From positions 96,001 through 160,000 of IMG/VR virus record IMGVR_UViG_3300050821_001527: a DNA stretch of 64,000 bases; one strand, written 5' to 3'. Made by a program: the position numbers and the translations under genes. This document shows positions 9,587-60,466 of the stretch, piece by piece. The number at the start of each line of letters is the position of its first letter. The stretch's first letter is position 1. Under the pieces are notes generated by a model. The model saw nothing but the letters and a program-made list of their open reading frames with translations, was not told where the DNA came from and ran no database searches. The stretch is from a virus (Duplodnaviria > Caudoviricetes).

Positions 9587-12166
9587 ATGGATAATAAATT
9601 TGGTTACGAAGAATCTCTGGAAGCCTCGATTTCTTACTTTAACGGCGATGAACTGGCCGCGAAAGTCTTTCTCGACAAATACGCCCTGAAAAACGAGCAG
9701 TCCGAAATCTTGGAGAAGTCGCCGTATATGATGCACAGCAGACTGGCGAAGGAGTTTGCCCGCATCGAGAAAAACAAATTCAAGGTCGCCCTCACCGAAG
9801 CTGAAATATTTTCGTTCTTCGACAGGTTCAAATACATCGTCCCTCAAGGGTCGCCGATGTTCGGCATCGGTAACAATTTCCAAATCATTTCGCTGTCCAA
9901 CTGCTACGTTGTGGAAACGCCGAGTGACAGCATCGGCGGCATTCTAAAGACCGACCAGCAGCTTGCTCAGATTTCCAAGCGCAGGGGCGGCAATGGAGCA
10001 TCACTCAATTCACTTCGCCCTTCCGGTGCGCCGACCAAAAACTCCTCCCGTTCTTCAACCGGAGTTCCGTCTTTCGCAGAAAGATACTCCAACACGATTC
10101 GTGAGATTGGACAGTCTGGTCGTCGTGGAGCCTTGATGCTTACCTTGTCAGTTCATCACCCGGACTGCTGCAAGATTGACGACGCCCAATGGGAATCTCC
10201 TAAGAAAATCGTTCTCAAGGGTGACGCCGAAAAACAGGAGCGCGACATTGTTACCGACTCCCGATTCTACGACGAGAACAACGTTGACTTTTGCTCAATG
10301 AAGTTAAACAGAAAGAAAGTCACGGGAGCAAATATCTCCATCCAGCTTTCGGACGAGTTTCTCAACGCCGTTAAGAAGGGCACAAAATACGAGCAGCGTT
10401 TCCCTCTCGACTATAAGGAGAAGGGTGTCAAGCCGATGGTATCGAAGATGGTTGACGCCCGCAAGGTGTGGCAAAAAATCATTCATTGCGCGTGGCAGTC
10501 TGCCGAACCCGGATTGCTTTTTTGGGATTTGATTAGACAGTTCAACGCGGTTGACTGCTATGCAAAACATGGGTTCGCCACGGAGTCCACAAACCCTTGT
10601 TCCGAATTGCCGCTCTGCATACTCGACTCTTGCAGGCTGATGGTGCAGAACCTATACTCTTACGTTCTCCATCCGTTTTCCAAAGACGCAAGGTTTGACT
10701 ACGACTTGTTCTACGCCCACGCGAAAATCTCGCAGAGGCTCATGGATGATTTGATTGACCTTGAACTCGAAAAGATTTATCAGATTATCGCCAAAATCAA
10801 GTCAGACCCGGAACCCGAAGAAATCAAGAGAGAAGAACTGACGCTGTGGGAAAAGATAGCTGAGAAATGTTCCTCTGGTCGAAGGACTGGGCTTGGCGTT
10901 ACTGGTGAAGGCGATGCCATTGCCGCCGTAGGTCTGAAATACGGTTCCGACGAAAGCATTAAGTTCGTGGAAAAAATCCACAAGACTCAGAAACTTGCCT
11001 CATTCGATTCGTCCTGTGAAATGGCCCAAGAGATTGGGGCTTTCCCTGTTTGGGATTGGGAATTGGAAAAGGATTCGGCGTTTCTTCTTCAAATCAAAAA
11101 GGAGGATGAAGCTCTTTATGAGCGCATCAAGAAATACGGACGCCGTAATATTGCGAACCTGACGATTGCCCCTGCGGGAACAGTTAGCATTATGACGCAG
11201 ACTACTTCCGGCGTAGAGCCGTTGTTCGACATTAAGCCATACGAACGCCGCAAGAAAATCAACCCCAACGACAGTTCCTCTAGGGTGGACTTCACCGATA
11301 CTAACGGAGACAAGTGGCAGAAGTTCGAGGTTAAACATCCCAAGCTCCAAATATGGATGGATGTAACCGGGGAGAAGGACTGGAAGAAGTCCCCTTGGTA
11401 TGGTTCCTGCGCTCCTGATATTGACTGGAAGCAGCGCGTCAAACTGCAAGCCGCCGCGCAGAGGCACATTGACCACGCCATTAGCAGCACCATCAATCTC
11501 CCGGCAGAAGTCACCGAAGAAAAGGTAGCCGAGATTTATCTTGAGGCTTGGGAGAGTGGGTGCAAGGGGATTACGGTTTATCGTGAAGGATGCCGTAGTG
11601 GAGTCCTTATCCGCAAGGACAAGGAAGAAGGCCCGAAGATTACCAAGACCGTAGCTCCTAAAAGGCCAAAGAGTCTGGAAGGAAAGCTTCACTTCTTCAA
11701 TTTCCGTGGCGACAAGTATTTCGTTGCCGTGGGGTTATTGGGTGGAACACCGTATGAAATCTTCACCGGATTCAACAGCGAGAAAAAGCGCGACTTTATC
11801 CCGAAAGACTGTAATACTGGGCAAATCAAAAAGCACCGCAGAGGGCATTATGTATTCGAGTCCGCAACGGATGGCGAGACGTATGCTCTTAACAATGGTC
11901 ACTCCGACGACAACGCCGACGCTTTGACCCGCATGATTTCTTGCAGTCTTCGCCACGGCAGCGACATTGCCTTCGTCATTCACCAGCTTGAAAAAACTTC
12001 CGGCGACTTGTCCTCGTTCTCGAAGTGCTTGGCTAGAACGCTAAAGTGCTACGTCGAAAACGGTAAAGAGGTTTCCGGCGAAGAATGTTCGGAATGCGGA
12101 AGCAAGCTCCACAGGGAGAACGGCTGCATTATTTGCAAGAACTGCGGAAACTCAAAATGTGGATAA
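9587..12166 (+). CDS. nrdJ: Class II (adenosylcobalamin-dependent) ribonucleotide reductase with C-terminal TSCPD and Zn-ribbon
   Basis: SNCYV, RRGA, TNPCSE catalytic motif, IAPAGT, TSGVEP, CKGITVYR, C-terminal CxxC pairs. Confidence 0.95.
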   Translation: MDNKFGYEESLEASISYFNGDELAAKVFLDKYALKNEQSEILEKSPYMMHSRLAKEFARIEKNKFKVALTEAEIFSFFDRFKYIVPQGSPMFGIGNNFQIISLSNCYVVETPSDSIGGILKTDQQLAQISKRRGGNGASLNSLRPSGAPTKNSSRSSTGVPSFAERYSNTIREIGQSGRRGALMLTLSVHHPDCCKIDDAQWESPKKIVLKGDAEKQERDIVTDSRFYDENNVDFCSMKLNRKKVTGANISIQLSDEFLNAVKKGTKYEQRFPLDYKEKGVKPMVSKMVDARKVWQKIIHCAWQSAEPGLLFWDLIRQFNAVDCYAKHGFATESTNPCSELPLCILDSCRLMVQNLYSYVLHPFSKDARFDYDLFYAHAKISQRLMDDLIDLELEKIYQIIAKIKSDPEPEEIKREELTLWEKIAEKCSSGRRTGLGVTGEGDAIAAVGLKYGSDESIKFVEKIHKTQKLASFDSSCEMAQEIGAFPVWDWELEKDSAFLLQIKKEDEALYERIKKYGRRNIANLTIAPAGTVSIMTQTTSGVEPLFDIKPYERRKKINPNDSSSRVDFTDTNGDKWQKFEVKHPKLQIWMDVTGEKDWKKSPWYGSCAPDIDWKQRVKLQAAAQRHIDHAISSTINLPAEVTEEKVAEIYLEAWESGCKGITVYREGCRSGVLIRKDKEEGPKITKTVAPKRPKSLEGKLHFFNFRGDKYFVAVGLLGGTPYEIFTGFNSEKKRDFIPKDCNTGQIKKHRRGHYVFESATDGETYALNNGHSDDNADALTRMISCSLRHGSDIAFVIHQLEKTSGDLSSFSKCLARTLKCYVENGKEVSGEECSECGSKLHRENGCIICKNCGNSKCG

Positions 12167-13006: not shown

Positions 13007-13122
13007 GGGGCTACTGGTCAGACTTGATGAACGAAAGCTAATACCGACAAACCGGATTGCTAGAGAATAGCATTTACGCAGGCCGTCATTGAGGCACGGT
13101 TTAACTCCGTGTAGCTCCACCA
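13007..13122 (+). ncRNA. Mini-tmRNA-like RNA (116 nt) with short frame ANTDKPDC*
   Basis: GGGGCTA/TAGCTCC acceptor with G3:U70 and ACCA, stemless D loop CTGGTCAGAC, P2-like helix, T-arm CACGG-TTTAACT-CCGTG. Confidence 0.75.
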
Positions 13123-22343: not shown

Positions 22344-22437
22344 GGCCGGTGTCCCCATCGGGAGTCTGTAAAACTTCTATGCTTACAAATGTGATGGGAA
22401 GTTGCACCGAAGGAGCGTTACCTTCACCGCGCCACCA
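22344..22437 (+). tRNA. D-armless tRNA-Tyr(GTA)-like RNA
   Basis: Loop CTGTAAA, 10-nt D replacement, 31-nt variable region, T-loop AGCGTTA, ACCA. Confidence 0.6.
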
Positions 22438-24267: not shown

Positions 24268-24345
24268 TTTTACGGCTGAGTTAGCGATTCCTGCGCGTGG
24301 GAACGAGACGATTCACTTCGTTTAACTGATGAAGCCGCCAATTTT

Positions 24346-27835: not shown

Positions 27836-27915
27836 CAGTCTTGGTCGAGGCGTGGGTTCGATTCCGCCGTGTGGCTCCATGCCGCACGTAGCTTAGTGGC
27901 AGAGCGCGACCTGTT
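27834..27915 (+). ncRNA. Circularly permuted tRNA-like (Y-RNA-like) RNA 3, Thr/Gly-type acceptor
   Basis: 3' half (GGTCG, TTCGATT T-loop, CGTGTGGC-TCCA), 1 nt, then 5' half (GCCGCACG, D arm, CGACC); ends pair AACAG/CTGTT. Confidence 0.8.
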
Positions 27916-27916
27916 C

Positions 27917-27991
27917 GGGGCTATGGTGCAGAAGTAAGCACGTTAGGTTCTCAACCTGAAAACGTCGGAGCGTTACCGACTAGCCCTACCA
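27917..27991 (+). tRNA. tRNA-Glu(CTC)
   Basis: Loop TTCTCAA, T-loop AGCGTTA. Confidence 0.85.
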
Positions 27992-29415: not shown

Positions 29416-29563
29416 GGGTATATGTTGTAATGGCAGCAAAAAGGGCGGGAGAGTCGAGGGAATAGCAGACCAACTATAGCTCTGTAAGCCTAGTAGCTCG
29501 ATTTGAAAACCTGAATACTCGTCTATACGAGTGGCCTCGGTTCGATTCCGGGTATATCCACCA
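29416..29563 (+). tRNA. tRNA with ~52-nt hairpin insert in the anticodon loop, long V arm, G3:U70
   Basis: GGGTATA/TATATCC-ACCA, D arm with GG, ACTCGT/ACGAGT V arm, TTCGATT T-loop; identity unresolved. Confidence 0.65.
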
Positions 29564-30266: not shown

Positions 30267-30344
30267 TTTATGGCCGTCAGCCTGAACCCCATCAGGCTAG
30301 TCCACCAAGGACGATGCAGAGGGTTATGCAACGGCATCCATTTC

Positions 30345-30416
30345 GCCAGTGCCGTCAGCACGGATTCGAGTTTTGTAAACTTGAAGCAGTCGGGGCAGCA
30401 CCGACCTCTGGCTCCA
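30345..30416 (+). tRNA. tRNA-Thr(TGT)
   Basis: Loop TTTGTAA, CAGC D tetraloop, U73. Confidence 0.8.
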
Positions 30417-30420
30417 TTTC

Positions 30421-30556
30421 GCCGTTCTAGTTCAATGTAGAACACGTCTCTCGAAAAGCCGATAGGCTCCCTGAACGGAGCAGTTAGTGGGGTGTTTGCC
30501 CTGCGATGTAATAAGGCCAGATGAACTGCTGGTGCCAAGTCCAGCGAACGGCTCCA
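30421..30556 (+). tRNA. Thr-type tRNA body with ~62-nt insert in the anticodon loop
   Basis: GCCGTTC/GAACGGC-TCCA, D arm GTTC/GAAC, anticodon stem CGTCT/AGATG. Confidence 0.7.
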
Positions 30557-34448: not shown

Positions 34449-34526
34449 GCATCAGTATTGGCACTCTTTCCTAAAGAGGACGCGCATAATTGGACGATGT
34501 GGGTTCGACTCCCTCCTGATGCACCA
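34449..34526 (+). tRNA. D-armless tRNA-Arg(CCT)-like RNA
   Basis: GCATCAG/CTGATGC-ACCA, CTCT-TTCCTAA-AGAG, 8-nt D replacement, 20-nt V. Confidence 0.6.
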
Positions 34527-34532
34527 ATCTAC

Positions 34533-35006
34533 ATGAAAGAAACCATTTGCCCATCTTGCGAGAACGAGATAGACCCCGAGGTTTGTCATTGCGGAGACGC
34601 AATCAAGAATCACTCGTTTCTCAACAGTAACCACGGCCCAATCCCTATGGGATGCACCTGTGGATACGCAGAACCGCCGCCGAAGCCGCTCAAGATGTAT
34701 ATTTTGGTCAAGGCGTCCCTGCCGTCTCACAAGATGATTGTGGTCGCCCACGGGGTTCTAATGGCTCACAAAGCCTTCTCTCACCTGATGTTCGAGAACA
34801 CGAAGACCTACCACGAATGGTTGGAAAAATCCTTCCGCAAGGTGGTCTGCGAAGTGAGCGATGGAGATTTTGAAAGGTTCAAGCAGTTCGATGACAAGGT
34901 GATTGTCACCGAATCCGGCTTGGATAACATGGAAGTCGGGATGGTGTTTTGCCCCCGACAGGAATGGCCGAAAGCCTTCAAGTTCCTCTCCATGAGCAAA
35001 TACTGA
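34533..35006 (+). CDS. Peptidyl-tRNA hydrolase 2-like protein with N-terminal Cys/His finger
   Basis: KMYILVK, VAH, W....RKVVC, terminal P..F..L pattern of Pth2. Confidence 0.7.
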   Translation: MKETICPSCENEIDPEVCHCGDAIKNHSFLNSNHGPIPMGCTCGYAEPPPKPLKMYILVKASLPSHKMIVVAHGVLMAHKAFSHLMFENTKTYHEWLEKSFRKVVCEVSDGDFERFKQFDDKVIVTESGLDNMEVGMVFCPRQEWPKAFKFLSMSKY

Positions 35007-35078: not shown

Positions 35079-35153
35079 GCCTTGTTCGTCTAAAAGTAAA
35101 GACACGTCATTGGTAATGATGAAACGACGGAGCGTTACCGTCACTCGGCTCCA
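35079..35153 (+). tRNA. tRNA-Thr(GGT)
   Basis: Loop TTGGTAA, U73. Confidence 0.85.
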
Positions 35154-36623: not shown

Positions 36624-36695
36624 GCCTTTGCCTTCAGCAAGGCCACCGCTTTCGTAAAGCGGCGGAAGTCGGGGCAGCACCGACCATTGGCTCCA
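36624..36695 (+). tRNA. tRNA-Thr(CGT)
   Basis: Loop TTCGTAA, CAGC D tetraloop, U73. Confidence 0.85.
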
Positions 36696-37024: not shown

Positions 37025-37115
37025 GGATAGTCAACCAGTCAGGGCTACTGGAACCGTCTCGAAAGCGGATTGTCCCCGATGAGGGGATGGGTTTCGATTA
37101 CTCGGCTATCCGCCA
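37025..37115 (+). tRNA. tRNA-Ser(CGA)
   Basis: Loop CTCGAAA, long V, G73. Confidence 0.85.
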
Positions 37116-59296: not shown

Positions 59297-60466
59297 ATGA
59301 AAATCTACGCCGAAAACACTCGCGTCCCAATCAAGTCTTGGTGTGAAAACCCGGAAGCCGGGGCTATCAAGCAGGCCGAGAACATGGCCAACCTGCCATT
59401 CACTTTCAGACACGTCGCCCTCATGCCCGACACCCATCAAGGCTTTGGTATGCCTATCGGTGGAGTTCTGGCTACCGATAACGTCATCATTCCGAACGCT
59501 GTCGGAGTTGACATTGGGTGCGGTATGTGTTCCATCGAATCCAACATCCAAACTTGGGACAGGGAACTGTTGACGGAAGCCATCAAGGAAATCCGCTACA
59601 ACGTTCCTGTCGGATTCAGCCGCCATCTTACCGCGAAGCCTGTGGACAAGCTGCCCGCCAGCACGTCCCCGAACGCCTACTATGAGAAGTTCCTTGAGCC
59701 GTCCCTGTTCCAACTCGGAACCTTGGGCGGCGGGAATCACTTCATCGAATTACAGAAGAACCCGAACGGAAATCTGTGCGTGATGATTCACTCTGGTAGC
59801 CGCAACATCGGGAAGCAGGTTGCCGACTATTACAACAAGCTCGCCCTCGCTCTGAACCAGCGTTATTTCAGTCAGGTCACGAAGGAAACCGACTTGGCGT
59901 TCCTGCCGCTTGACTCTGCCGAGGGTCAGGCTTACTTGGCGGAAATGACTTACTGTGTCGCGTTTGCCTTGGCGAACCGCATGGAAATGATGAACGCTTG
60001 CCAGCAAGCCATCTACAAGGTTTTCAAGCCTTTGCAACAGGTCGAGTTCACGAACTTCATCAACATTCCGCACAATTATGCGAAGGTTGAAAAGCACTTC
60101 GGCAAGGAAGTCGTCGTCCACCGCAAGGGCGCGACGAATGCCAGCGAGGGCGTCATTGGGCTAATCCCCGGCTCGCAGGGCACCAAGAGCTACGTGGTGC
60201 GCGGCAAGGGTAATCGTGAGAGCTTCGAGAGTTGCTCCCACGGCGCAGGCCGCAAGATGGGCCGCATGGTCGCCAAACGCACTCTGAACATCGAAGACGA
60301 GCAACGCAAGCTGGACGAACTTGGAGTCATTCATGCCGTCCGCGCCAACTCTGACTTGGACGAGGCTCCGGGTTCCTATAAGGACATTGACGTGGTTATG
60401 AGCGAGCAAACCGACCTGATTGACGTTATCGAAGAACGCACTCCTTTGGGAGTCGTGAAGGGGTAA
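59297..60466 (+). CDS. rtcB: RtcB RNA 3'-phosphate/5'-OH ligase
   Basis: MPDTH.G.G.PIG, GVDIGCG, GTLGGGNHFIE, HSGSR, HN, HRKGA, SHGAGR, DEAP.SYK. Confidence 0.97.
   Translation: MKIYAENTRVPIKSWCENPEAGAIKQAENMANLPFTFRHVALMPDTHQGFGMPIGGVLATDNVIIPNAVGVDIGCGMCSIESNIQTWDRELLTEAIKEIRYNVPVGFSRHLTAKPVDKLPASTSPNAYYEKFLEPSLFQLGTLGGGNHFIELQKNPNGNLCVMIHSGSRNIGKQVADYYNKLALALNQRYFSQVTKETDLAFLPLDSAEGQAYLAEMTYCVAFALANRMEMMNACQQAIYKVFKPLQQVEFTNFINIPHNYAKVEKHFGKEVVVHRKGATNASEGVIGLIPGSQGTKSYVVRGKGNRESFESCSHGAGRKMGRMVAKRTLNIEDEQRKLDELGVIHAVRANSDLDEAPGSYKDIDVVMSEQTDLIDVIEERTPLGVVKG

Follow-up and report, generated by a model that had tools for sequence, protein, structure and literature searches.

The closest precedents for the RNA described here are the species 1 and 2 RNAs of T4 and the tRNA inserts of Lak megaphages. 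The T4 species are 120–140 nt in length, are located in the phage tRNA cluster and have no known function (PMC9697503). The Lak inserts are conserved stretches of 80–115 nt in tRNA anticodon loops, including that of tRNA-Thr, mostly without a match in Rfam; their exons retain the cognate anticodon and a canonical elbow, an allele free of the insert is known, and a TTC-type loop is present in those inserts that are shown (PMC6784885). To date, phage 'tRNA introns' have been called from sequence only. When engineered tRNA scaffolds with a cargo substituted for the anticodon loop are expressed in E. coli, they undergo processing and prove stable (PMC3753655). In addition, the tRNA regions of phages are known to counter tRNA-cutting defences (PMC11555353).

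The stretch of DNA analysed here, referred to as the window, has a length of 64 kb and comprises bases 96001–160000 of a linear phage record of 202,882 bases, which is about 91% complete. It carries a long tRNA array and a tmRNA. Within the array, a 136-nt RNA resembles T4 rnaC and rnaD (NC_000866, 70908–71171) in size, tRNA-cluster location and tRNA-like ends, and the predicted fold of rnaC likewise has a terminal stem and a T arm. However, rnaC differs by its long hairpins and canonical TTC loop, its predicted fold is without a D arm plus anticodon stem, and no Thr acceptor was seen. The family model described below gave no match to rnaC or rnaD, and no homology of sequence or structure was found. 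Compared with the Lak introns, the 136-nt RNA has no cognate anticodon, no canonical elbow, no insert-less allele in the collections scanned and no T loop in the insert, and its closing helix is limited to 3 bp.

Anatomy of the RNA

The features of the locus are as follows, with positions counted in the window and member counts referring to the family described in the next section.

30345..30416, +, intact tRNA-Thr(UGU), 4 nt upstream of the 136-nt RNA; gene order matched in L106 only
30421..30556, +, complete RNA gene of 136 nt; tRNA body of the Thr type, anticodon loop occupied by a folded domain
30421..30427, +, acceptor stem 5' strand; G1-C2-C3 constant (13/13), positions 4–7 vary with compensation
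30430..30443, +, D arm; 4-bp stem with two covarying pairs, 6-nt loop without GG; extra hairpin in the loop in two homologs
30445..30449, +, anticodon stem 5' strand; partner 30519–30523, both-side changes in 3/5 pairs
30450..30457, +, relic anticodon-loop strand, 7–8 nt; U33 and the last two A invariant
30458..30460, +, closing helix 5' strand, 3 bp; partner 30515–30517, 2/3 pairs covary, no extension to an acceptor-length stem
30466..30481, +, hairpin A; 5 bp, four covarying; 6-nt loop with an invariant AAC at its end
30482..30486, +, junction linker; invariant UUA
30487..30504, +, hairpin B; 7 bp, one of them an invariant G.U; loop of 4 nt, UU invariant; also retained in L159, the distant variant
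30505..30514, +, 3' junction linker; invariant GAU and one A
30515..30518, +, closing helix 3' strand and one unpaired variable base
30519..30527, +, anticodon stem 3' strand, then the variable loop (4 nt); equivalent of U48 invariant, opposite A15
30528..30545, +, T arm; 5 bp, four covarying; non-canonical 8-nt loop without TTC, invariant CC and A
30546..30556, +, acceptor 3' strand, U73 discriminator and CCA; U73 in 13/13, CCA encoded in 11/13
59297..60466, +, phage RtcB RNA ligase gene; any action on the 136-nt RNA is conjectural

The original prediction described a Thr-type body with a 69-nt anticodon loop, and the coordinates bear this out. The acceptor (30421–27/30546–52) forms 7/7 pairs, with U-CCA after it. 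The D stem is 4 bp long, and the anticodon stem (30445–49/30519–23) and the T stem are 5 bp each, the former including one G.U. The loop, 30450–30518, is exactly 69 nt long and starts with CTCGAAA. It consists of a relic strand of 7–8 nt, a domain of 59–61 nt built as a three-way junction, and one final base; the domain in turn comprises a 3-bp closing helix, two hairpins and conserved linkers. The proposal that the loop holds small hairpins was only partly correct: AGCC/GGCT is unsupported across homologs, its inner pairs forming in 6/13 and 9/13, and the 5-bp hairpin at 30466–81 and the 3-bp closing helix (30458–60/30515–17) had been overlooked. The 3' linker may pair with 30483–30486, since three pairs form in 12–13/13 members, albeit with little covariation. 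The insert had also been called unrelated to a second case in the same array, and no similarity to the shell at 29416–29563 was found.

Conservation and covariation

The Rfam tRNA model scores the 136-nt RNA at 33.2 bits, above its gathering score of 29 (E 1.2e-5), ARAGORN in intron mode calls it Ser(CGA) i(36,62), and its folding z is -2.1. Together with the homologs described below, these results speak against a chance resemblance. The same 136 nt are present in an independent assembly (L154), so the RNA is no assembly artefact.

Homologs were found by two routes. A pattern made of the Thr acceptor, the D arm, a long gap and the Thr 3' end led to L040, and patterns of the insert led to L056 and seven distinct metagenome members. 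The second route used no insert sequence; relatives were sought through an unrelated 72–75-aa protein that is encoded in the vicinity of the RNA in four loci. Full members were present in four of the nine loci obtained in this way (L157, L161, L163 and L164; 94–142 bits), and the same nine yielded the distant variant L159 (36 bits). The family has 13 distinct members including the query and 12 beyond it, with pairwise identities of 62–97%, eight members having come from patterns that fix parts of the insert. All 13 sit among tRNA genes of large, uncultured phages, and the similarity between phages starts and stops at the ends of the RNA.

The consensus has seven helices, in which 98.9% of the pair cells of the 13 members pair. 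Changes on both sides were found in 21 of the 36 base pairs, spread over all seven helices; none of 500 shuffles reached this count, and slid controls gave 3–7 pairs. A MAFFT alignment that was not fitted to the model returned the same fold and also 21 pairs. Such counts are inflated by the relatedness of the sequences, yet several pairs show three or four types. The 5-bp anticodon stem of the original prediction is borne out, since its two upper pairs are replaced by U-A and by C-G or G-C among the divergent members. The family has 53 invariant positions. In one member, L157, the first acceptor pair is broken and CCA is not encoded, which counts against the function proposed below.

The domain is 82–95% identical to that of the query in 11 of the 12 homologs, and the relic loop strand falls to 50%. 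The whole RNA is 83–90% identical between phages against 52–80% for the best-matching true tRNAs, a comparison partly biased by the exact-pattern search. Random insertions without conserved boundaries had been named as the outcome that would speak against the prediction; the homologs instead show a conserved insert, fixed boundaries and compensatory changes, which indicates that the RNA is under selection.

Some of the relatives are elaborated or rebuilt. The members at L163:7932–8091 and L164:8103–8258 have an added hairpin of 25–26 nt in the D loop. The variant at L159:9144–9281 keeps the Thr acceptor, the 8-nt T loop and hairpin B with its UUA and GAU flanks; the remaining domain is rebuilt. 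This variant is followed by a 56-aa ORF, as in L040 and L099.

Exact 5' patterns gave one chance match in viral contigs and none in metagenomes, a pattern of the D arm plus CTCGAAA found only ordinary Arg tRNAs and chance matches, BLAST against isolate phages gave no match for the 136-nt RNA, and a scan of genome contigs gave 10 matches, none of which scored with the family model. Look-ups with the sequences of four members led to no further genome. No published description of the family was found in a literature coverage that was incomplete.

Several local pairings were tried and rejected. A hairpin of the relic strand with 30461–65 seemed supported in the first nine members, but the divergent ones weaken it, two of its positions pairing in 5/13 and 9/13 members; one invariant U-A was retained. 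Pairing of the anticodon stem with the nearer GAUG, the minimum for the single sequence, has no compensatory change, whereas the distal stem has it. A nested tRNA remnant inside the insert amounts to 3 bp and has no T arm. The hairpin B loop as a mimic of a Thr anticodon (YGU in 11/13) has two exceptions and the wrong loop shape, and is a weak lead.

Relation to tRNA-Thr

The 136-nt RNA shares with bacterial and phage tRNA-Thr (RF00005) the acceptor GCC/GGC-U-CCA, U8-A14, A15-U48, the D, anticodon and T stems and a short variable loop. It differs by its 69-nt loop and 8-nt T loop, and by the lack of G35-U36, of a conserved anticodon and of GG in the D loop. The odd T loop is kept even where canonical TTC loops prevail in the tRNAs of the phage. 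Among the CCA-ending tRNAs of the 396 called in these loci, GCC/GGC together with U73 was found in 11/11 Thr tRNAs and in no other type. The anticodon stem and its flanks resemble Thr(GGU) of this genome, the relic strand is one change away from the Thr(CGU) loop of L156, a related phage, and no copy of the insert was found elsewhere in the genome. The RNA presumably descends from tRNA-Thr by an insertion just 3' of the anticodon.

It has the cloverleaf and CCA of a decoding tRNA-Thr, with the Thr-type acceptor pairs and U73. The 7-nt loop with NGU is missing, and NGU occurs in no register of any of the 13 members; the would-be anticodon triplet reads CGA, UGA, UAA, UCA, AUA or UAG. Bacterial Thr identity needs anticodon bases besides the acceptor pairs (PMC9976931), which makes Thr charging of the 136-nt RNA doubtful. 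The conservation of the acceptor could reflect descent and processing needs alone.

The phage has three Thr tRNAs (TGT 30345–30416, GGT 35079–35153 and CGT 36624–36695), and each carries GCC..GGC-U-CCA, as the original prediction had noted in likening the acceptor to theirs. It also has Ser tRNAs for GCU, CGA, UGA and GGA, the genuine Ser(CGA) being that at 37025–37115. Since the genome thus already has full sets of three Thr and four Ser tRNAs, the 136-nt RNA is surplus to both sets.

Alternative explanations

One alternative is that the tRNA body carries a device of RNA only, the domain either binding a metabolite as an aptamer or cleaving itself as a ribozyme. The three-way junction and the invariant linker bases would suit such a device, and so would the loops of hairpins A and B, which are complementary over 4 nt in 11/13 members; a similar loop-loop layout is found in purine riboswitches and hammerheads. 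However, the loop-loop pairing shows no covariation, the junctions read from the sequence have no hammerhead core, and none of the riboswitch and ribozyme families of Rfam 15 matched at the gathering score. The only match was Twister-P5, with 11.4 bits against 37.6 (E 4.5), over the T arm. Of the riboswitch-like cargo proposed earlier, a conserved folded domain is supported. A cis-acting riboswitch is not, as the RNA ends in CCA and there is no fixed downstream gene available for regulation. An RNA-only device is thus improbable.

The relic strand might alternatively serve as bait for anticodon nucleases of the host, in line with the nuclease decoy offered by the original prediction. Within the strand, U33 and two A are invariant, cuts could be repaired by RtcB, and the tRNAs of phages have a known role against tRNA-cutting defences (PMC11555353). 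Against this, published escape from such defences is by a supply of functional tRNA, and the bait does not explain a domain of 60 nt. Anticodon nucleases are anticodon-specific, but the triplet is free to change, and the drift of the anticodon argues against an anticodon-specific decoy. It is therefore doubtful that this is what the RNA does.

The original prediction also raised an intron. A nuclease would excise the domain of 60–62 nt, and the RtcB of the phage would join the halves into a tRNA. The insert lies just 3' of the anticodon, near the canonical 37/38 site, its ends pair in the covarying 3-bp helix, RtcB is encoded by the genome, a Ser anticodon would result in 8/13 members, and tRNA introns have been reported for Lak phages, although by a mechanism that was not established (PMC6784885). 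A short insert near 37/38 and an RtcB-type ligase are also shared with the BHB introns of archaea and eukaryotes. However, this is a bacterial virus with no conserved bulge-helix-bulge (the four central pairs form in 8, 12, 7 and 9 of the 13 members), and no splicing endonuclease (PF01974) was found in the genome, which is 91% complete. No splice register leads to Thr or to any one amino acid, and the best give a mix of Ser, Leu, Tyr and stop or use closing-helix bases. A search of homologs for insert-less alleles, suggested as a check, found none in 1.6 Mb of loci or in a T-arm scan of viral contigs. RNase P would find neither a T arm nor a 7-bp stem in the insert. In most cases the relic loop is less conserved than the domain, whereas splicing to a working tRNA predicts the opposite. 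RtcB is absent from two relatives, a weak point as these are fragmentary. By the established identity rules, a short-armed Thr body with a Ser anticodon would suit neither synthetase. Again, because Thr identity uses anticodon bases besides the acceptor pairs (PMC9976931), a spliced product would probably be uncharged. As for group I introns, the insert of 62 nt has no such core and no Rfam match. Introns of that group have a catalytic core of about 200 nt or more, an exon U at the 5' site and a terminal G. Taken together, splicing is very unlikely.

A tRNA-Thr pseudogene in decay, or a selfish insert that spread together with HNH homing endonucleases, is still less probable. In L157, L161 and L164 the RNA is immediately preceded by an HNH gene, but an adjacent one is missing in this genome and several others, the insert was not copied from elsewhere in the genome, compensatory changes occur in every helix, and the conservation exceeds that of true tRNAs.

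Finally, a tRNA-Ser(CGA) with an ordinary loop and a giant variable arm, for which 30445–49 can pair 4/5 with 30457–61 around a 7-nt CGA loop in this genome alone, has a negligible probability and is refuted by the covariation: the local stem pairs in only 3–5/13 homologs at three positions and has a predicted pairing probability of 0.0, the distal stem pairs in 12–13/13 with covariation, the end is U73 with a Thr acceptor rather than G73, the variable loop is 4 nt and the real Ser(CGA) lies at 37025–37115.

Proposed function

The 136-nt RNA is very probably conserved, unspliced and non-decoding. If so, the chances that it is a protein-binding decoy or adaptor appear about even. The best explanation as a whole, held with similarly divided confidence, would be a stand-alone, unspliced, non-decoding RNA derived from tRNA-Thr, with the body as a scaffold and the domain binding a partner, whose identity is a guess. 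The odd T loop is kept, a hairpin in the D loop is tolerated, and members are more alike than true tRNAs, a comparison affected by the ascertainment; this is consistent with a molecule that is under its own selection and does not pass through the ribosome.

The RNA would be co-transcribed with the tRNA array and, like its neighbours, released by RNase P with 3' trimming or CCA addition. A nucleotidyltransferase of the CCA-adding type (PF01743) is encoded by the genome, and a scan for promoters and terminators gave background level only. The tRNA body may act as a natural scaffold giving processing and stability. The engineered scaffold of Ponchon and Dardel likewise keeps the acceptor, D and T arms and offers the anticodon loop to a cargo (PMC3753655); it is artificial, whereas the cargo here is natural and conserved, and it is an analogy for the mode of working, not for the family. 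The invariant single-stranded bases of the domain may build a compact tertiary structure to which a protein binds, probably a factor of host translation or defence. Pairs 4–7 of the acceptor drift while U73 and the first three pairs are fixed, which suggests that a factor recognising the acceptor ends of tRNA-Thr reads GCC/GGC-U-CCA; ThrRS or an acceptor-targeting toxin would be possible readers. During infection, the RNA would then act as a decoy or an adaptor.

The neighbouring genes vary among the loci, and no ORF accompanies every member; this variation speaks against both a riboswitch acting in cis and a dedicated partner encoded next to the RNA. A SpoU methylase lies downstream in four loci, yet was not found in G000–G002, and the 56-aa ORF follows the RNA in four loci and was not found in this genome. 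Among candidate partner genes, no class IIa synthetase anticodon domain and no PF09414 RNA ligase was found. The combination of a tRNA-mimic domain with an extra domain is shared with tmRNA (RF00023) and YrlA (RF02553). In contrast to these, the 136-nt RNA has no G3.U70 and no tag ORF, its D stem is present and its arms are not permuted, no Ro60 (TROVE) gene was found, and there is no match to either family in Rfam.

Other unusual tRNA-like elements

The array of this phage holds further irregular units. A back-to-front tRNA-like element at 27838–27925 of the window presents the T arm and GGC-U-CCA first, followed by the matching 5' acceptor strand and the D arm. The units at 22345–22437, 29416–29563, 13007–13122, 24272–24340 and 30271–30340 are D-armless, have an extended anticodon stem or are unclassified; that at 13007–13122 is similar to a unit following the homolog in L102. 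The ORF at 34458–35006 has a weak match to the peptidyl-tRNA hydrolase PTH2 (E 0.001, below the cut-off), and this ORF is also found next to the homolog in L106.

A second RNA family of 139–141 nt was found in other viral contigs (L039:886–1025(-), L041:2978–3118, L042:2280–2419, L047:9503–9641 and 10126–10264, and also in L044, L046, L048 and L049). It has the same Thr-type acceptor end, a canonical T loop, a variable 'anticodon' loop and an extra arm of about 65 nt in the variable region, and Rfam reports it as tRNA only. In L100 and L103, a 47-nt RNA gene about 85 nt downstream of the homolog shares its acceptor with that homolog and has a T-like hairpin and U-CCA, with no D or anticodon arm; it forms a natural minihelix. 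Unusual Thr tRNAs include a tRNA-Thr(GGU) of 69 nt with a shortened anticodon stem (L100:1351–1419(-)) and a tRNA-Thr(UGU) of 86 nt with a long variable arm (L163:5583–5668). A 143-nt tRNA-like unit at L162:8249–8391 has a D arm resembling that of the 136-nt RNA and a long insert between the D and anticodon arms.

The 72–75-aa protein (L040:8907–9134(-) and 111 homologs) belongs to no Pfam family and marks these phage tRNA arrays; it is absent from this genome. A major-vault-protein-like gene stands beside the tRNA array of a related phage (L162:11888–14443), and short AlaRS-like genes (PF01411) are located beside arrays at L156:11737–12552 and L162:18452–19165.

Implications

As judged from the aligned sequences, the 136-nt RNA represents a real, conserved and uncatalogued RNA family of the tRNA-shaped type from phage tRNA clusters. 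An ARAGORN-style intron call, here Ser-CGA, can mask a conserved non-coding RNA, and tRNA counts and intron claims in large phages therefore need checks against homologs. The function of the T4 species 1 and 2 RNAs is still obscure, and the family provides a small, well-aligned and easily synthesised case with a structure backed by covariation. If the RNA binds a host tRNA-handling or defence protein, an RNA route would be added to phage counter-defence. A more specific and rather speculative reading, which we consider possible but unlikely, is that large phages have evolved natural tRNA-scaffolded RNAs whose Thr-type end and compact aptamer-like domain together trap a host enzyme that reads tRNA-Thr, either a synthetase or a tRNA-targeting defence toxin, or else carry threonine outside the ribosome, the domain taking the place of the anticodon. 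If this were true, it would be an RNA-based counter-defence or adaptor that has not yet been described.
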